Shown here one piece after another: positions 10,481 through 16,345 of a stretch of 64,000 bases of DNA; the stretch's first letter is position 1, and each line of letters begins with the position of its first letter. The notes beneath the pieces were generated by a model that saw only the letters and a program-made list of their open reading frames with translations, was not told the origin of the DNA and did no database searches. A program made the position numbers and the translations under genes. Location: NCBI GenBank assembly GCA_015062545.1, contig SUUL01000001.1, positions 96,375 through 160,374 on the forward strand, in the 5' to 3' direction. This DNA comes from Alphaproteobacteria bacterium (GTDB taxonomy: Bacteria; Pseudomonadota; Alphaproteobacteria; Rs-D84).

Positions 10481-11179
10481 ATGTCTGTACGTATCGCAAA
10501 ATTTATCGCAGATTCTGGGGTCGCATCACGCCGCGCCGCAGAAGAAATGATTCTGTCTGGACGCGTTGCTGTCAATGGTACAAAAGTTAACACACCGGTT
10601 TTCTTTGTAGATGATGGCGATATAGTATCTGTCGATGGCAAAGACATCTGTAAGCGACAGACGACTGAACTGTATGCATTTCACAAACCAATTAACACAA
10701 TGACAACGCTGCGTGACCCAGATGGGCGCAGAACAATATATGAATGTATGCCAGACGAATATAAACATTTGAAATATGTTGGGCGATTGGATTATAAAAC
10801 AACCGGATTATTACTGATGACAAATGATGGTGAATTGGCGCGCAAGTTAACAATGCCATCATCTGGGATTCCGCGTGTATATTTGGCAACTGTGACACGT
10901 GTGGATATATCTGGATTAAAACGCGCCAGGCAAGGAATTACCGTTGATGGTATTAAATATGCACCAATGAAAATTGATATTTTACCAGAAAAAAAATTAC
11001 GTGTCACAATTACCGAAGGAAAAAAGAACGAAGTACGAATTGTACTGCGTGCATGCGGATGTCCGGTGGTAAAACTACATCGTGAAAAGTACGGAAAAAT
11101 TGCCTTGGGAAAACTGCCCGTTGGAAAAATTGAAAAATTATCGCAGAAAGTGATTGACGAAACATTAAAATCTCTCTAA
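10481..11179 (+). CDS. RsuA/RluB-family pseudouridine synthase (S4 domain)
   Basis: S4 domain (RIAKFIADSGVASRRAAEEMILSGRVAVNG) and catalytic GRLDYKTTGLLLMTNDGELA motif. ATG at 10481 immediately after the rsmE stop. Confidence 0.7.
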   Translation: MSVRIAKFIADSGVASRRAAEEMILSGRVAVNGTKVNTPVFFVDDGDIVSVDGKDICKRQTTELYAFHKPINTMTTLRDPDGRRTIYECMPDEYKHLKYVGRLDYKTTGLLLMTNDGELARKLTMPSSGIPRVYLATVTRVDISGLKRARQGITVDGIKYAPMKIDILPEKKLRVTITEGKKNEVRIVLRACGCPVVKLHREKYGKIALGKLPVGKIEKLSQKVIDETLKSL

Positions 11180-11208: not shown

Positions 11209-12351
11209 ATGAAAAAAACACCTGTCAAAAAAACAAGCAACTCTAAAAAGTCTGTAAAAGTGCGTCCTGTGGCATCTAAGCCAACGGTAAAAACTGTCAC
11301 CAAGAAAACTTGTGTCAGTCCGTGGTCTTTATCAATTTACGTTTATTGGTTCGTGATTTTATTCTTTATTGCGGCAACTTTTTATATCTTGGGTCGCACA
11401 CATAATGCGCAACCAGAAGTTGCAAATGTTGAAATCACCGAAGAAATCTTGTTGCAAGCGGGTGATTATTACGAAAGCGGTAAAACAAAATTATTAGCAG
11501 GCAATGTTGACGAAGCATTGGCAGACTTGACCGCGGCGATTGATGCGGGGGCTGCATCTGTAGATACATACGTATTGCGTGGCGAAGCATTTATGCAGGC
11601 CGGCAACTATCGCGATGCACTGGCAGACTTTAACACGGCTTTGTCAAAAGACCCTTCCAGCGCAGTGGCATATTACGACCGCTCTTTGTTACACGCACGT
11701 TTGGAAGACTATGCTGCGGCATTAAATGATATTAACAATGCATTGGCCGCAAATGTTTCAAACCCAAGTTCTGCTTTGCAGATGCGTGACCTTTATGCAA
11801 AACGTGGCCAAATAAATCTGTGGACAAAGAACTGGGAAGGGGCAGTTGCAGATTATACAAATTCTTTGGCACGCCCAGAAGGGATTGTATCACCAGAAGT
11901 TTACGCAGAACGCGCAGAAGCATACACCGCAATGGGAAATTATGACGATGCAGTCAAAGACTATGCATCCGCCATACGCGTTATATCCGAACAAATCCAA
12001 GGTTTACCAACCAAGGCAGAACGCGAATCTTTGTCCAGTCGTGCAATGAACTATTTTGAAAAATCTGCGGCATTGAATTTGCAACAGGGTTTAACCGAAG
12101 CTGCACGTACAGACTTGGAATCTGCATATACAATCGCAATCGCATTGAAAGATTCAGAATCTATCAGCAGATTGAAAGCACTGATTACAGAATTGGTATC
12201 GCCAACACTGCCTGCAGAAGCAGTCACAGAAGAAGCGACCGCAGAAACAGTTGTCCAAGAAAGTGTGACACAGCCAGCAGAAGCACCCGCACCAGTTCAG
12301 CCCGATGTGGCCGGTACGGATGCGCCAACAGAACCTGTGGCACAGAACTAA
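11209..12351 (+). CDS. membrane-anchored TPR-repeat protein
   Basis: Lys-rich N-terminus, one TM, multiple TPR-like repeats (..AYYDRSLLHARLEDYAAALNDINNAL..), acidic Pro/Ala-rich C-terminus. Confidence 0.6.
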   Translation: MKKTPVKKTSNSKKSVKVRPVASKPTVKTVTKKTCVSPWSLSIYVYWFVILFFIAATFYILGRTHNAQPEVANVEITEEILLQAGDYYESGKTKLLAGNVDEALADLTAAIDAGAASVDTYVLRGEAFMQAGNYRDALADFNTALSKDPSSAVAYYDRSLLHARLEDYAAALNDINNALAANVSNPSSALQMRDLYAKRGQINLWTKNWEGAVADYTNSLARPEGIVSPEVYAERAEAYTAMGNYDDAVKDYASAIRVISEQIQGLPTKAERESLSSRAMNYFEKSAALNLQQGLTEAARTDLESAYTIAIALKDSESISRLKALITELVSPTLPAEAVTEEATAETVVQESVTQPAEAPAPVQPDVAGTDAPTEPVAQN

Positions 12352-14759: not shown

Positions 14760-15059
14760 ATGGATATGGAAGCATTAATGGCACAGGCCGCAGAATTACA
14801 AACCAAGGTTAACGCCGCACAAGAAACATTGGCAAAATCTGTTGTCAAAGGTATTGCAGGTAACGGTGCGTGCATTGTTGATATGACGGGCAAATATGAT
14901 TTGATAAAAATGACAATCCGACCGGAAATTTTGTCACAGGGCGCAGATGCGGTTTGTGAAATTGTATCTGCGGCATATATGGATGCCAAGACCAAGGCAG
15001 ACGCATTAATAGACCAAGTTATGGGCGATGCCACTGCAGGTATGCCAATGCCAAATTAA
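14760..15059 (+). CDS. ybaB: nucleoid-associated protein YbaB/EbfC
   Basis: About 100 aa with the YbaB-family pattern (MDMEALMAQAAELQTKVNAAQETL..). Start at 14760 preferred (GGGGG SD 8 nt upstream); the longer ORF would overlap a hairpin at 14717-14735. Confidence 0.7.
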   Translation: MDMEALMAQAAELQTKVNAAQETLAKSVVKGIAGNGACIVDMTGKYDLIKMTIRPEILSQGADAVCEIVSAAYMDAKTKADALIDQVMGDATAGMPMPN

Positions 15060-15062
15060 CCA

Positions 15063-15087
15063 GAACCGCCGATTGGCGGTTTTTTAT
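15063..15087. terminator. intrinsic terminator (aaccgcc-gatt-ggcggtt + T-run)
   Basis: Hairpin plus T-run after the ybaB stop. Confidence 0.65.
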
Positions 15088-15200
15088 TACCCCCACCCCA
15101 GAATTCCAACGTCAATAAATTGTCGGGAATTCTGACCCGCCCCACAAGGGGGCAGGGGTAAAAGCATATTTCCCAACACACACGGGGGGCGGGGGTATGT
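15087..15200 (+). repeat. GC-rich repeat copy R1 (72-bp core TTACCCCCACCCCAGAATTCCAACGTCAATAAATTGyCGGGAATTCTGACCCGCCCCACAAGGGGGCAGGG plus ~40-bp tail ..CAACACACACGGGGGGCGGGGGTATGT)
   Basis: Near-identical copies at 15749-15819 and 15939-16076. Contains the internal inverted repeat CAGAATTCC/GGAATTCTG. GC-rich in an AT-rich background. Confidence 0.7.
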
Positions 15201-15255
15201 AGATTTTACTTGACCATGATTGCCAGATAATAAACAATTTTTTTAGGGGTTGTTA

Positions 15256-15639
15256 ATGGTAATACATTCTGCACAAATAAATCGTGCGAAATCGTTGCGA
15301 AAAAATATGTCTGATACCGAATTGAAATTTTGGTACAGGATAAATCGTAATCAAATGGGGGTAAAATTCCGGCGGCAACAACCTATTGGGCCTTATGTTG
15401 TTGATTTTGTATGTCATTCATTAAAATTGGTAATCGAATTAGATGGCGATCAACATCTGTTTAATATTGAATATGATAATAAACGAACGCAATATATTGA
15501 ATCCCAAGGATATATGATAATACGAATACCGAATGCATATTTAACGTGCACGGGGATAGATGATGTAGTGCATACGTTATATCGATGTATAAATGAAAAT
15601 TTAGATTATTATGAGTTTTTTGTGTCCAGATACCAATGA
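15256..15639 (+). CDS. DUF559 domain protein (Vsr/restriction-endonuclease-like fold)
   Basis: ..LKFWYRINRNQMGVKFRRQQPIGPYVVDFVCHSLKLVIELDGDQH.. matches the DUF559 signature. AGGGG SD 6 nt before the ATG at 15256. Confidence 0.65.
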   Translation: MVIHSAQINRAKSLRKNMSDTELKFWYRINRNQMGVKFRRQQPIGPYVVDFVCHSLKLVIELDGDQHLFNIEYDNKRTQYIESQGYMIIRIPNAYLTCTGIDDVVHTLYRCINENLDYYEFFVSRYQ

Positions 15640-15658
15640 ATTTATAGGTGTTGTTATT

Positions 15659-15681
15659 CCCTGCCCCCTTTGTGGGGCGGG
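15659..15681 (-). repeat. inverted partial copy of the repeat core 3' end (CCCTGCCCCCTTTGTGGGGCGGG)
   Basis: Reverse complement of CCCGCCCCACAAGGGGGCAGGG (as at 15138-15159) with one extra T. It lies just past the DUF559 stop, so the gene is bracketed by inverted copies. Confidence 0.6.
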
Positions 15682-15723
15682 ATAGTTTTACTTGCGGGAA
15701 CGTATGTGAGTGCATAGTAAAAC

Positions 15724-15819
15724 TTGGGTGGGGGGGGTATGTGTGTTATTACCCCCACCCCAGAATTCCAACGTCAATAAATTGCCGGGAATTCTGACCC
15801 GCCCCACAAGGGGGCAGGG
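15724..15819 (+). repeat. GC-rich repeat copy R2 (GGGTGGGGGGGGTATGTGTG leader + 72-bp core)
   Basis: Core 15749-15819 is identical to R1/R3 apart from 1-2 substitutions. Preceded by a G-run/TATGT segment resembling the R1/R3 tail. Confidence 0.7.
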
Positions 15820-15880
15820 AATATCAGCATGTTTTTTTACCATAATTACTTACTACAATTTTTTTATAAAAAAATTGTCA

Positions 15881-15901
15881 TTCTGGGGCTTGACCCCAGA
15901 A
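15881..15901. repeat. perfect 8-bp inverted repeat TTCTGGGG-cttga-CCCCAGAA between R2 and R3
   Basis: Shares the CCCCAGAA / TTCTG motifs of the repeat core. Confidence 0.45.
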
Positions 15902-15938
15902 CCTAGGTGATACATCTTTGTTATTTGTGCGCGCGACA

Positions 15939-16076
15939 TTACCCCCACCCCAGAATTCCAACGTCAATAAATTGCCGGGAATTCTGACCCGCCCCACAAG
16001 GGGGCAGGGATAAAAGCATATTCCACAACACACGGGGGCGGGGGTAAAAGCATATTTCCCAACACACACGGGGGGA
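15939..16076 (+). repeat. GC-rich repeat copy R3 (core + duplicated tail)
   Basis: Core 15939-16009, then the tail ..TAAAAGCATATTCCACAACACACGGGGGCGGGGG.. is present twice (16011-16045, 16046-16076). Confidence 0.7.
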
Positions 16077-16097
16077 TGATAAAGACACAAATTATCC

Positions 16098-16126
16098 TTG
16101 CCAAGAAAATTTGTTTTTAATATGAT
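16098..16126 (+). promoter_or_regulatory. candidate sigma-70 promoter TTGCCA-17-TATGAT driving leader A and the Cys-rich protein gene
   Basis: Hexamers at 16098-16103 and 16121-16126. Predicted TSS about 16133. Confidence 0.5.
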
Positions 16127-16132
16127 ATAAGC

Positions 16133-16345
16133 AACCCATGGGGCAACCATGGGCCGAGGACTTGAAACCTCTTCATACAACGTAGGTGTCGCGTGAAGAC
16201 ACTTGGAAAAATCTCCAACCTGATTCGGTTGGAGGGTGGCGATATATTTAAATAAGCCCGCTATTTTGTATGATAGTTTCAAGCCTCCAACCGCTTTTGT
16301 TTTCAAATGCGGTTTTCTTGTTTTAATACACAGGGGGCGTTGGGA
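16133..16345 (+). promoter_or_regulatory. structured 5' leader A, attenuator-like: hairpin CTCCAACC(16213-16220)..GGTTGGAG(16227-16234), second CTCCAACC(16285-16292) overlapping terminator hairpin AACCGC..GCGGTT(16289-16314) + U-tract, then SD/ATG
   Basis: The same architecture and about 75% sequence identity is found in leaders B and C on the minus strand; leader D has a covarying version. The alternative pairing GGTTGGAG:CTCCAACC(2) would prevent the terminator from forming. Confidence 0.5.

Follow-up and report, generated by a model that had tools for sequence, protein, structure and literature searches.

A gene for a DUF559 nuclease and the structured repeats around it appear to form one module, a conclusion supported by the presence of repeat units at homologues of the gene in all related loci examined, which represent at least five chromosomal contexts. 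We studied one such locus within a 64-kb stretch of DNA (the window). Judged by sequence, the window repeats are a local version of the BoxC/PIT/triplex-motif (TM) repeats; they have triplex potential, and ViennaRNA folds, which model hairpins but not triplexes, predict hairpins for them. Knowledge of BoxC/PIT/TM repeats dates back to the early 1990s; these repeats fold into triplexes in vitro and are markers of unstable loci. DUF559 is a very widespread nuclease family with the Vsr fold. To our knowledge, neither an origin nor a function nor a partner protein has been established for the repeats, and the DUF559 family has no assigned function. Our results suggest that these two orphans, the nuclease and the repeat family, may belong together. 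We favor, at somewhat under even confidence, the interpretation that the locus is a compact selfish cassette made of a nuclease gene and structured repeats, similar in its logic to REP/RAYT systems.

Structure of the repeat units

The initial annotation of this DNA described three copies of a ~72-nt core and an inverted partial copy. Our repeat search confirmed the three direct copies, and a 21-mer and a 22-mer from the two ends of the core each had three exact matches in the window, versus none expected from shuffles. The partial copy (15659-15681) is inverted, as described, but it forms one end of a fourth, complete unit on the minus strand, which has the same two boxes as the Y-type units and a different central stem-loop. 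The window thus holds four units (R1, the inverted X unit, R2, and R3) rather than three and a fragment, and all of them are intergenic. In general, a unit is built from a C-run box (CCCCCACCC), a variable stem-loop, and a hairpin (CCCGCCCC..GGGGGCAGG). The internal inverted repeat containing the EcoRI sites, which had also been noted, is CAGAATTCC..GGAATTCTG and has an inner stem, and it folds better than shuffled sequences (z = -4.2 as DNA and -3.9 as RNA). The stem of the Y hairpin covaries, and the hairpins of the units form equally on either strand.

The ~35-nt tail follows R1 once and R3 twice (15143-15189, 15995-16041, and 16029-16075), in line with its reported duplication, and R2 has no tail. 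The minus strand of R1 carries a C block, a G block, a 36-nt loop, and a mirror G block, which is the grammar of a triplex motif. The G block of the R1 tail forms a second C-G-G motif with the A hairpin, on the plus strand, and forms terminal inverted repeats with the B box (TTACCCCCACCCC/GGGGCGGGGGTA). The fourth unit and R2 make up a gene-less inverted pair, X plus Y, with an 11-nt spacer. The terminator-like hairpin of ybaB directly precedes R1. We also recovered the reported G-run/TATGT direct repeats, and the background that had been called AT-rich is moderately so, with a GC content of 42% for the window. The palindrome at 15881-15901 had been considered related to the core; it belongs to a second, different family, which has related copies in loci L022 and L053.

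Table 1. Features of the DUF559 locus, in window coordinates
Feature	Position	Strand	Evidence or remark
Terminator-like hairpin and T-run closing ybaB	15062-15086	+	RNA fold: 9-bp hairpin, then UUUUUU
Unit R1, Y type	15087-15158	+	Repeat search, exact matches, folds, C-G-G finder
R1 B box CCCCCACCCC	15090-15099	+	Part of unit R1
R1 Y stem-loop with two EcoRI sites	15099-15131	+	Part of unit R1
R1 A hairpin CCCGCCCC-ACAA-GGGGGCAGGG	15136-15157	+	Part of unit R1
R1 tail	15159-15200	+	Repeat search, folds, C-G-G finder
G block GGGGGGCGGGGG closing R1 tail	15184-15195	+	Part of R1 tail
Candidate promoter TTGACC-17-AACAAT within conserved motif TTTTACTTGACC	15204-15238	+	9/12 match; putative promoter function
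DUF559 endonuclease gene (Vsr-fold PD-(D/E)XK), 127 aa	15256-15639	+	Pfam PF04480, E = 6e-32
Fourth unit, X type, inverted	15660-15738	-	Inverted-repeat search, folds, C-G-G finder
A' hairpin CCTGCCCCC-TTTGT-GGGGCGGG of fourth unit	15660-15681	-	Terminator-like with following T-run
X stem-loop AGTTTTACT..AGTAAAACT of fourth unit	15684-15722	-	Part of fourth unit
G block GGGTGGGGGGGG of fourth unit	15726-15738	-	Part of fourth unit
Unit R2, Y type, no tail	15749-15819	+	Direct-repeat partner of R1 (662-bp indel) and R3 (190-bp deletion)
Two adjacent palindromes, ACAATTTTTTTA/TAAAAAAATTGT and GTCATTCTGGGGCTTGACCCCAGAAC, of a second, unrelated family	15852-15904		Inverted-repeat search
Unit R3, Y type	15939-16009	+	Repeat search, exact matches
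Two tandem tail copies after R3, each closed by a G block	16010-16078	+	Repeat search, C-G-G finder

The core is not a fragment of a known tRNA or other RNA by these searches: no Rfam family scored above its gathering threshold in 14900-16450 (also searched with E up to 10), and ARAGORN found no tRNA or tRNA fragment in the units or this interval. The best Rfam match in the interval, sRNA-Xcc1, scored 33.5 bits against a gathering score of 53 and lay outside the units.

We used a generic finder for C-G-G motifs, defined as a C block, a short loop, a G block that can pair with the C block by Watson-Crick rules, and a second G block that is mirror-symmetric to the first. The finder matched all four window units, with additional plus-strand motifs contributed by the tails, and nothing else in the 64 kb or in related control loci. 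The blocks of the window units are CCTGCCCCC, GGGGCGGG, and GGG(G)TGGGGG with a mirrored interruption (C opposite T); the interruption of the third block mirrors that of the first G block, as in the TMECO consensus (PMC4666352). The repeat had been proposed as undescribed, whereas its box grammar is that of the published BoxC/PIT/TMECO motifs (PMC4666352). Loop 1 is 4 to 5 nt, and loop 2 is 36 to 44 nt, forms a hairpin, and exceeds short-loop limits, so we consider the units a variant of the BoxC/PIT/TM motifs and not a canonical member. Loops were limited to 1 to 6 nt in the published ITxF search (PMC4666352) and to 0 to 10 nt by Hoyne et al. 2000, as cited there, and searches with such limits would therefore miss units like those in the window.

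The DUF559 gene and its putative expression signals

The earlier assignment of the gene to DUF559, with a Vsr-like fold, held up. The protein matched PDB 3hrl (E = 2e-19), and its AF2 model (pLDDT 88.8) matched the folds of 3hrl, the I-Bth0305I homing endonuclease, PvuRts1I, and Vsr, and also those of RAP-type RNA-binding proteins of mitoribosomes. The catalytic motif is D..ExDG..H, and D50, E61, D63, and H67 are invariant across 62 homologues. The neighboring genes encode PNPase, YbaB, a Cys-rich secreted protein, and ComEC. PADLOC returned a single marginal PglX match, which points to no known defense system.

The conserved motif that holds the candidate promoter, TTTTACTTGACC, is the 5' arm of an X-type stem-loop and precedes all DUF559 homologues of the clade by ~45 nt; X units without a gene have TTGCGG in place of TTGACC. 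In five loci (L011, L014, L020, L022, and L030), a G block, GGGTGGGGG, lies 6 to 10 nt before the ATG and is complementary to a box after the stop codon. No B box follows the stop codon in the window, and this 5'/3' pairing is absent there.

Distribution in related genomes

In the ~250 kb of DNA analyzed from related genomes, units occurred only within 3.3 kb of a DUF559 gene, with the farthest in L011, and ~66 kb of related DNA without a DUF559 gene contained none. Exact-match, unit, and C-G-G searches of the 64-kb window found no copy outside this locus; a genome-wide REP-like family had been envisaged, and there was no copy away from a DUF559 locus in the DNA searched. Units lie beside DUF559 homologues in L007, L011, L014, L017, L020, L022, L023, and L030, and the loci of the clade fall in at least five chromosomal contexts (ybaB/comEC, dnaK, a PBP gene, rarA, and rho). 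The gene sits exactly between inverted units in L011, L014, L020, L022, L030, and L031, its start and stop each only a few bases from a unit; overall, inverted copies flank the gene in most related loci examined. In the window (R1/R2), L017, and L023, the gene lies between direct repeats, and the arrangements as a whole are heterogeneous (inverted, direct, or mixed), with inverted the commonest. L011 has extra units 0.75 and 2.8 kb away and a 119-aa ORF between two direct units. The 62-nt ends of L014 differ from each other by 1 base yet are unlike those of L011. L014, L020, and L022 share synteny, and movement would therefore be rare.

We scanned 185,579 species genomes with the 19-mer ACCCCCACCCCAGAATTCC, a probe that picks up just one of the two copies known from L007, and obtained five matches, of which four were chance matches in GC-rich genomes and one was real (L007, Candidatus Enterousia sp.). 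Of two scans of metagenome_contigs, one gave no match and the other a single chance match, and this collection evidently does not include the organism. The locus is also carried by JGI contigs. None of the genes that flank other DUF559 loci is present in the window, so the window has no empty site for them; contexts of the PNPase homologue include ybaB loci without DUF559, but these are rearranged and are not clean empty sites. We saw no target-site duplication at the units and no genome with several cassette copies, and the units of this organism were seen at one locus only.

Indels and rearrangements at the units

L053 is 98.3% identical to the window in nucleotide sequence and lacks a 662-bp segment consisting of the tail, the DUF559 gene, the X unit, and one Y unit; the junction falls exactly at R1/R2. 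Its YbaB is identical to that of the window, the ybaB terminator is followed by a single unit, and the gene is absent from the same site in this MAG assembly. L053 is a within-species variant without the gene-bearing segment. In two other loci, L004 and L050, the 190 bp separating R2 from R3 are missing. The unit content of L007 and L017 differs by ~260 bp, and the module lies at a breakpoint of a seven-gene inversion relative to L028. These indels could come from host recombination or slippage between direct repeats of 70 to 110 bp, and the L053 and L004/L050 variants could be assembly artifacts in MAGs or metagenome contigs. Short-read assemblies tend to break at the motifs, as four of seven did here.

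DUF559 genes in distant bacteria

Inverted C-run/G-run hairpins bracket DUF559 genes in Rhizomicrobium, Azospirillum, Sphingomonas, Deinococcus, Pseudanabaena, and E. coli (ycjD). The inverted repeat is 53 nt in Deinococcus and a perfect 24 nt in Azospirillum, and flanking hairpins are found in Sphingomonas, Pseudanabaena, Photobacterium, and Rhizomicrobium. DUF559 genes are inserted inside operons in the opposite orientation; two Deinococcus species have the gene within the hpa operon, each at a different site. In some distant homologues, the ORF runs into the box, at the 3' end only. No bracket was found for the Sinorhizobium gene (L038), the Neisseria bracket is weak and distant, and 40 kb of Photobacterium DNA contain ~90 such hairpins, the majority of which have no relation to the gene. 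Hairpins are enriched 3- to 60-fold near DUF559 genes, part of which is an intergenic bias, because hairpins are generally intergenic in GC-rich genomes.

The E. coli DUF559 gene, ycjD, has the published TMECO #9 at 168 bp. The box beside it belongs to a dispersed family present at a median of 17 places per genome, and strains without ycjD still have this family. One nuclease gene with scattered repeats gives a REP/RAYT-like picture in E. coli. At the sapF-fabI site, ycjD alternates with the eef operon among E. coli strains (PMC12817139), and DUF559 genes are enriched among coding sequences overlapped by inversion-type inverted repeats (PMC9881135).

Proposed mechanism and alternative explanations

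On comparative grounds, we infer that the DUF559 nuclease acts on the boxes and drives the rearrangements. The unit is a potential intrastrand-triplex motif of the BoxC/PIT/TMECO type, with its second loop expanded by a variable hairpin, and the boxes would take a hairpin or triplex form when the DNA is unwound. The nuclease would recognize these boxes and nick or cut them, repair templated by other unit copies would duplicate or delete the DNA between units, and such repair may occasionally transfer the gene together with its units to another intergenic position. Solo units and inverted pairs that have no gene would be nonautonomous leftovers, similar to MITEs. The X unit may have been co-opted to supply the -35 box of the gene, and the A' hairpin with its T-run would be the gene's terminator, which together would make the cassette self-contained for expression. 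As far as we know, a PD-(D/E)XK nuclease alone cannot perform strand transfer, which counts against the cassette interpretation, as do the heterogeneous arrangements, the single locus seen in this organism, the missing target-site duplication, the Sinorhizobium gene without a bracket, and the E. coli strains that have the boxes but not ycjD.

A broader proposal seems possible to us, if rather doubtful: DUF559 proteins may be the cognate nucleases of BoxC/PIT/TM repeats across phyla, with the gene and its inverted motifs forming a class of minimal selfish elements and the gene-less pairs or solo TMs, such as those of E. coli, being MITE-like derivatives. If this is true, it explains the origin of BoxC/PIT/TM repeats and the genomic instability around them, and two long-standing orphans would explain each other. 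A PD-(D/E)XK nuclease with structured-DNA ends would then be a previously unrecognized class of minimal selfish element. We found no paper linking the repeats to the nuclease in the literature on DUF559, ycjD, COG2852, and intrastrand triplexes, the TMECO paper mentions no DUF559, ycjD, or any endonuclease (PMC4666352), and the link is apparently new.

A passive origin, in which recombinogenic non-B-DNA repeats of the BoxC/TM type arise and amplify locally by slippage and unequal crossing-over, and small genes acquired horizontally, DUF559 among them, land or survive at such permissive, unstable intergenic places while the nuclease takes no part, would fit several observations. TM loci are unusually rearranged among E. 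coli strains with no known protein partner (PMC4666352), boxes persist in E. coli genomes without ycjD, most Photobacterium hairpins have nothing to do with the gene, and the direct repeats that bound all observed indels are long enough for host recombination. We consider this origin unlikely, since it leaves unexplained why units in this AT-rich clade occur only at DUF559 loci in at least five contexts, why the gene sits exactly between inverted units a few bases from its start and stop, and why brackets of this kind appear again in other phyla, each lineage with box sequences of its own. The units might instead be a regulatory or insulating shell around a potentially toxic nuclease, in which the X unit supplies a promoter, terminators flank the gene, and a G block also acts as the ribosome-binding site and can pair with the C block in the 3' untranslated region; the protein may autoregulate by binding RNA or DNA. 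The conserved TTTTACTTGACC motif and its decay to TTGCGG in gene-less units, the terminator-like A' hairpin and T-run directly after the stop codon, the G block before the ATG in five loci with its complementary box after the stop, the covarying Y stem, and the RAP-type fold match all agree with such a shell. The window, however, does not preserve the 5'/3' pairing, the -10 elements are weak, and R2, R3, the tails, and the distant L011 units have no gene to regulate. Conservation of the primary sequence of the boxes across phyla is not required of a purely structural signal, and PIT/BoxC elements acted neither as promoters nor as terminators in E. coli (PMC4666352); a shell is, in our judgment, about as improbable as the passive origin. 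An RNA-only reading is likewise not favored, given that the hairpins form equally on both strands, that the window lacks the 5'/3' pairing, and that the putative promoter starts only downstream of most left-hand units.

Direct repeats around the gene in the window, L017, and L023, the precise unit-to-unit excision product that L053 represents, and the 119-aa ORF between direct units in L011 could also point to an att-site system, in which a hypothetical recombinase excises the 662-bp segment as a circle, unit by unit, and reintegrates it at another unit in the manner of an integron. This is very improbable: no integrase or recombinase gene lies near any locus examined, attC core sites (GTTRRRY/RYYYAAC) are lacking, the commonest arrangement is inverted rather than direct, and the arrays are short and hold DUF559 only. 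We give equally little credence to a literal REP- or RPE-like family dispersed through the species in hundreds of copies, with DUF559 in the role of RAYT. Inverted copies do flank a nuclease gene, and the related E. coli boxes are dispersed, but no copy was found in the rest of the window or in the ~66 kb of gene-less related DNA, the 19-mer scan found one relevant locus, the gene is not a Y1 transposase, and the units never lie in frame inside genes as RPEs do.

Comparison with known systems

Several identities were rejected. For an integron cassette, CRISPR, and a type III toxin-antitoxin system, the irregular spacing and mixed orientations do not fit; the neighborhoods contain no integrase or cas gene, and the unit sequence has no RYYYAAC...GTTRRRY core sites. 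Rickettsia palindromic elements (RPEs) are 100- to 150-bp palindromic elements dispersed in the genome and often in frame in protein-coding genes. The initial annotation had raised this kinship, which does not stand, as the window units are intergenic, were seen at one locus, and are never in frame. The protein shares with Vsr its fold (1vsr and 1cw0) and an acidic/His metal site; very-short-patch repair was rejected, as there is no Dcm-type C5-cytosine methyltransferase among the neighbors, identity is 15 to 17%, and the family is PF04480, not PF03852.

The fold clan of DUF559 includes a proven homing endonuclease (the Vsr/EDxHD enzyme I-Bth0305I, PDB 3r3p). Other likenesses to homing endonucleases are a small, self-contained nuclease gene that lies within operons or separates conserved housekeeping genes and presence or absence among close relatives (E. 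coli ycjD, and L053 versus the window, where the MAG caveat applies). Unlike these, the DUF559 gene here has no intron or intein context and encodes the motif D..ExDG..H, and homing endonuclease genes are not known to be flanked by inverted repeats. MITEs and modular repeats (Correia/NEMIS, ERIC, pneumococcal BOX, and RPE) resemble our units in size (70 to 115 nt), terminal inverted repeats, modular build, and gene-less copies beside a gene-bearing one, whereas our units show no target-site duplications, no dispersed copies in the DNA searched, and no classical transposase family and are never in frame within genes.

BoxC/PIT/TMECO motifs occur in E. coli, Synechocystis, H. influenzae, and >260 genomes (Holder et al. 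2015, PMC4666352), and TMECO triplexes were not detected in vivo (PMC4666352). The window units share with them the three-block grammar with its interruption at the matching place, a 4- to 5-nt loop ahead of the complementary G block, an intergenic location, association with local rearrangement, and frequent inverted pairs of two subtypes (A plus B in E. coli and X plus Y here) with 11- to 27-nt spacers. They differ in loop 2, which is 36 to 44 nt with its own covarying hairpin here and 3 nt there, and in the boxes (CCTGCCCCC/GGGGCGGG/GGGTGGGGG here and CCCTCNCCC/GGGNGAGGG there). In the DNA searched, our units are also confined to the DUF559 locus while theirs are dispersed, and no protein partner is named in the BoxC/PIT/TMECO literature.

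REP/REPIN elements with RAYT (TnpA_REP) genes were reportedly described by Nunvar et al. in 2010 and by Bertels and Rainey in 2011. The REP-RAYT-like module first proposed for this locus stands in that repeats and gene appear to be one module with inverted brackets and a gene-lacking variant. Membership in REP/RAYT itself does not: the gene encodes a PF04480 (DUF559) nuclease of the PD-(D/E)XK Vsr fold, matching 3hrl, I-Bth0305I, and Vsr, and not an HUH/Y1 transposase, and the units lack a conserved GTAG-type tetranucleotide. Hundreds of dispersed copies were not seen in this organism in the DNA covered (64-kb window, related DNA without the gene, and 19-mer scan). What the systems share is a single-copy nuclease gene flanked by inverted short structured repeats, inverted repeat doublets, and, presumably, a nuclease acting on hairpins. 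If the cassette interpretation is right, a third partnership of a nuclease and structured repeats would join REP/RAYT and IS200/IS605.

Structure of the repeat units

Sequence reading, a repeat finder and exact matching upheld the three direct GC-rich copies (R1, R2 and R3) of the initial annotation; each core end had three exact matches in the window versus zero expected from dinucleotide shuffles. The copies are spaced 662 and 190 nt apart, start to start, and a tail of ~35 nt with a G run at its end follows R1 once and R3 twice. A search for two conserved boxes found four units, not three, and the supposed inverted partial copy is instead a complete unit on the minus strand. The core comprises two hairpins, CAGAATTCC..GGAATTCTG and CCCGCCCC-ACAA-GGGGGC(A)GGG, and its folding outscored that of shuffles (z = -4.2 as DNA and -3.9 as RNA). 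Rfam and tRNA searches found no RNA family or tRNA in the repeats.

Every unit has a B box (CCCCCACCC), a variable stem-loop of several types, and an A hairpin (CCCGCCCCAC..GGGGGCAGG) with a variable tip holding inserts of 0 to 40 nt. The Y-type stem-loop is the EcoRI hairpin of R1 to R3, the X type (AGTTTTACT..AGTAAAACT) is found in the inverted unit, and relatives carry further types. On the opposite strand, the unit reads as a C block (CCTGCCCCC), a TTTGT loop, a G block (GGGGCGGG), a 36- to 44-nt loop and another G block (GGGTGGGGG), and the third block is a mirror image of the second, down to where the interruption falls. Across five lineages, the 14 pairs of the Y stem were 97.3% paired, with 5 pairs changed on both sides; none of 500 shuffles was as good, and slid controls collapsed. 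The interior of the Y hairpin keeps a pyrimidine-pyrimidine mismatch (T.T, T.C, C.C or C.T) in all lineages, and the flanking pairs covary. This mismatch is intriguing given the Vsr fold of DUF559, which is the fold of a mismatch-recognizing nuclease.

Coordinates of features in the window and in the compared loci
Feature	Position	Strand	Remark
R1 core	15087-15158	+	Direct GC-rich copy
R2 core	15749-15819	+	Direct GC-rich copy
R3 core	15939-16009	+	Direct GC-rich copy
Fourth unit	15660-15738	-	Complete, X type
Y-hairpin mismatch	15109/15120 in R1		Columns 23/34 of alignment A2
DUF559 gene (ORF)	15256-15639		Pfam PF04480, E = 6e-32
TTGACC-17-AACAAT	15210-15238		Promoter-like; promoter scan
TTGCCA-17-TATGAT	16098-16126		Promoter-like (10/12)
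Promoter-like site plus structured leader	16098-16345		Cys-rich gene ATG at 16346
Second palindrome family	15852-15904; L022 ~10595-10640, 10928-10956, 11599-11632; L053 4466-4516, 4560-4600, 4640-4680, 4745-4775, 4845-4895		
Cys-rich protein genes	16346-17068; L007 1371-2477; L011 7587-9878; L014 6725-9832; L020 1913-5443		By DUF559 cassette
Solo unit	L011 13196-13275		Between rpmG and SHOCT-domain gene
119-aa ORF	L011 10764-11123	-	Between two direct Y-type units
Inverted block	~15060-22630; L028 12860-18160		comEC-truA-x-x-fmt-def-rmuC
Assembly break points	L050 end 5112; L051 end 5084; L052 end 5021; L053 end 4895		Window ~15621-15838
ycjD flank features	L029 5200-5420, 5758-5802		

The DUF559 gene and neighboring elements

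The gene and its Vsr-like fold were confirmed. The protein matched PDB 3hrl (E = 2e-19), and its AlphaFold model (pLDDT 88.8) matched 3hrl, the homing endonuclease I-Bth0305I, PvuRts1I and Vsr. D50, E61, D63 and H67 were invariant among 62 homologues. The model also matched several mitoribosomal proteins of apicomplexans and ciliates (T. gondii 9i05 and T. thermophila 6z1p), which are probably RAP-domain proteins; the fold is thus used for RNA binding too. The left arm of the X stem-loop carries TTTTACTTGACC ~45 nt upstream of every clade homologue, and in gene-less X units TTGCGG replaces this promoter-like motif. Directly 3' of the DUF559 stop codon, the A hairpin of the inverted unit (A') and a T-run resemble a terminator. 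These features suggest that the X arm and the A' hairpin provide the promoter and terminator of the gene.

A second, unrelated family of small palindromes, GTCA(T/C)TC..hairpin..GA(A/G)TGAC (e.g., GTCATTCTGGGGCTTGACCCCAGAAC), is nested in the hypervariable intergenic stretches that also hold the DUF559 units, and its members are often preceded by the A/T palindrome ACAATTTTTTTA/TAAAAAAATTGT. A structured leader of ~210 nt separates the second promoter-like site from a gene for a Cys-rich secreted protein. Within it, CTCCAACC..GGTTGGAG forms a hairpin and AACCGC..GCGGTTTTCTTGTTTT resembles a terminator, and there is a weak, subthreshold Rfam match to sRNA-Xcc1 at 16227-16300 (33.5 bits versus a gathering score of 53). 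Its candidate roles are attenuator, riboswitch-like leader and small RNA.

Units accompany DUF559 in related genomes

An identical DUF559 protein occurred on 23 metagenome contigs with the arrangement unchanged. Scanning 185,579 species genomes with a 19-mer gave a single real match, a Candidatus Enterousia sp. MAG (L007), where a DUF559 gene 83% identical to that of the window precedes the same X unit and two Y units. Among further homologues (58 to 83% identity), no DUF559 locus was without units, and the loci fall into at least five chromosomal contexts: ybaB/comEC (window), dnaK (L007 and L017), a large protein with an MFS gene (L011) or a PBP gene (L014, L020 and L022), rarA (L023) and rho (L030). 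Strict and loose regex, a generic finder and nhmmer found no unit in the remaining 63 kb of the window, which does not support a genome-wide REP family in this organism, nor in ~66 kb of related genomes without a DUF559 gene in the sampled stretch. The metagenome_contigs collection gave no match for a pattern present in JGI metagenome contigs L001 and L003, so absence from that collection is not evidence of absence. The greatest distance from unit to gene was 2.8 to 3.3 kb, in L011; a solo unit there, 2.8 kb from the gene, was the only one seen not immediately at a DUF559 locus. L011 also has a 119-aa ORF with no Pfam match.

Inverted units do bracket other DUF559 genes: the gene lies exactly between such units in L011, L014, L020, L022, L030 and the distant L031. 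The bracketed order is A', stem-loop and G block, the gene from ATG to stop, then C block, stem-loop and A, with terminator hairpins on the outside. The 62-nt ends of the L014 cassette differ at a single base, yet are unlike those of L011, so that both ends of a given cassette evolve in concert. The window, L007/L017 and L023 have intact gene-less inverted pairs beside the gene, which is flanked by direct unit repeats. In the window, R1 comes first, with its C-block side leading, then the gene and then the inverted X unit; this orientation recurs around the Deinococcus and Azospirillum genes.

Clade cassettes repeatedly adjoin genes for large Cys-rich proteins with signal peptides (weak Ephrin_rec_like matches). 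The proteins may be variable and surface-exposed, and the cassette would then live in fast-evolving regions.

Polymorphism at the locus

We retrieved all contigs with an identical YbaB protein, and most matched the window fully over 15060-16345. The polymorphism that the initial annotation anticipated was found as repeat-bounded indels, all in metagenome or MAG assemblies, where they may be assembler collapse of repeats. L053, a MAG contig 98.3% identical to the window over 4.4 kb, shows a single unit past the ybaB terminator, continued by the sequence that comes after R2 in the window; it lacks a 662-bp segment (tail, DUF559 gene and X unit), with its junction in R1/R2. Against collapse, L053 carries SNPs of its own inside the unit, and its downstream DNA differs. 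In L004/L050, R2 is joined to the R3 tail, a 190-bp deletion, and between L007 and L017 there is a difference of ~260 bp in the units 5' of the gene. Of seven independent assemblies, four stop within the unit cluster, which could reflect strain heterogeneity, or drop-out of polymerase and sequencing where G-rich DNA forms triplexes or hairpins. Relative to L028, a seven-gene block, rmuC..comEC, is exactly inverted. The DUF559 module and the Cys-rich gene lie at one junction; the other (rmuC/infC) has ~26 bp only and no unit.

Distant DUF559 genes and E. coli ycjD

The bracket proved general among distant DUF559 genes. Rhizomicrobium (37% identity, GC-rich) has the same tripartite inverted shell with other boxes: ACCCTCCCC-TTGA-GGGAGGGT, stem-loop, GGGGAGGGG. 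For other taxa, a tblastn search of plasmid and chromid records gave 40 records, from which we examined 11 loci. The DUF559 gene has a 53-nt inverted repeat around it in Deinococcus proteolyticus, a 24-nt perfect inverted repeat in Azospirillum lipoferum, four CCCCTCCCGCCTGCGGGAGGGG hairpins in Sphingomonas, three CCCCCCAGAATTGGGGGG hairpins in Pseudanabaena, hairpins on both sides in Synechocystis, and several intrastrand-triplex motifs (TMs) in Photobacterium, whose genome is full of them. The Neisseria bracket is weak and distant, and the Sinorhizobium locus has no bracket. C-rich-arm hairpins were 3 to 60 times denser within 300 bp of DUF559 genes than in the ±20-kb flanks, of which up to ~8-fold may be intergenic bias, as such hairpins are intergenic anyway. 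Several DUF559 genes lie inside operons in opposite orientation. The gene occupies two different hpa operon sites in two Deinococcus species, a position inside the methylcrotonyl-CoA carboxylase cluster in Sphingobium, and the space between yqeY and dnaG in Sphingomonas. Among predicted programmed-inversion target coding sequences, which are those overlapped by inverted repeats, the annotations "DUF559 domain-containing protein" and "endonuclease domain-containing protein" are enriched, with odds ratios of 14.3 and 9.6 (PMC9881135).

The published TMECO #9 (1,351,239-1,351,204), an E. coli TM copy, lies 168 bp beyond the stop codon of the E. coli DUF559 gene, ycjD; by our estimate, adjacency to one given gene would be expected in ~0.2 to 0.4% of cases (18 TMECO sites, 4.6 Mb). 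In E. coli K-12 (L029), a perfect 17-bp hairpin covering the Shine-Dalgarno sequence and GTG start codon precedes ycjD. At its 3' end, ycjD merges into a degenerate inverted box, after which a ~45-nt duplicate of that 3' end lies between two inverted GC-rich boxes. The E. coli box family occupied a median of 17 places per genome and was present in 5,426 of 5,426 complete genomes. ycjD is at the sapF-fabI site only in strains without the eef operon (PMC12817139).

Interpretation

The core idea of the initial annotation is supported: repeats and nuclease gene form one module with REP/RAYT-like logic. The comparisons show the unit anatomy, the DUF559 association, its several contexts and the indels between repeats. 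Our tentative reading, to which we give slightly less than an even chance, is a selfish cassette. The nuclease would act on the folded boxes, as a fold clan that includes a homing endonuclease and the comparative pattern suggest; break repair between units would amplify, delete and occasionally relocate gene and units, leaving gene-less pairs and solo units as non-autonomous remnants.

A passive role of the units, as recombinogenic DNA in which DUF559 is a passenger, seems to us rather unlikely. Similarly doubtful is a shell with a regulatory or insulating role; it might involve recognition at the RNA level, given that RAP-type RNA-binding proteins are among the fold matches. Far less probable are an att-site cassette system with a hypothetical recombinase and, to the same slight degree, a literal REP/RPE family; the comparison with Rickettsia-type palindromic elements found no support. 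A nuclease-repeat partnership, if real, would give a function to two orphan families, DUF559 and the triplex-motif repeats, and would be directly testable in E. coli with YcjD and TMECO DNA.

Comparison with known triplex-motif repeats

Incomplete coverage of the literature on DUF559, ycjD and bacterial intrastrand triplexes revealed no systematic bracketing of DUF559 by triplex motifs, and an earlier description is possible. PMC12817139, PMC9881135 and the TMECO paper (PMC4666352) agree with the link without drawing it. The TMECO consensus is CCCTCNCCC-N3-6-GGGNGAGGG-N3-GGGNGAGGG (Holder et al. 2015, PMC4666352). E. coli MG1655 has 23 copies, and there are five inverted pairs that always combine two subtypes; BoxC/PIT/TMECO motifs form triplexes in vitro and mark unstable loci, and no functional class was reported for TMECO flanking genes, with endonucleases unmentioned (PMC4666352). 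Published searches were limited to loops of ≤6 or ≤10 nt and so could not find the window units. The repeat is not undescribed: the window units share the C-G-mirror-G grammar of BoxC, PIT and TMECO, potential intrastrand-triplex motifs, but unlike these have a hairpin inserted in loop 2. Within this known grammar, the form with the long loop is new, as is its subtype with a putative promoter.
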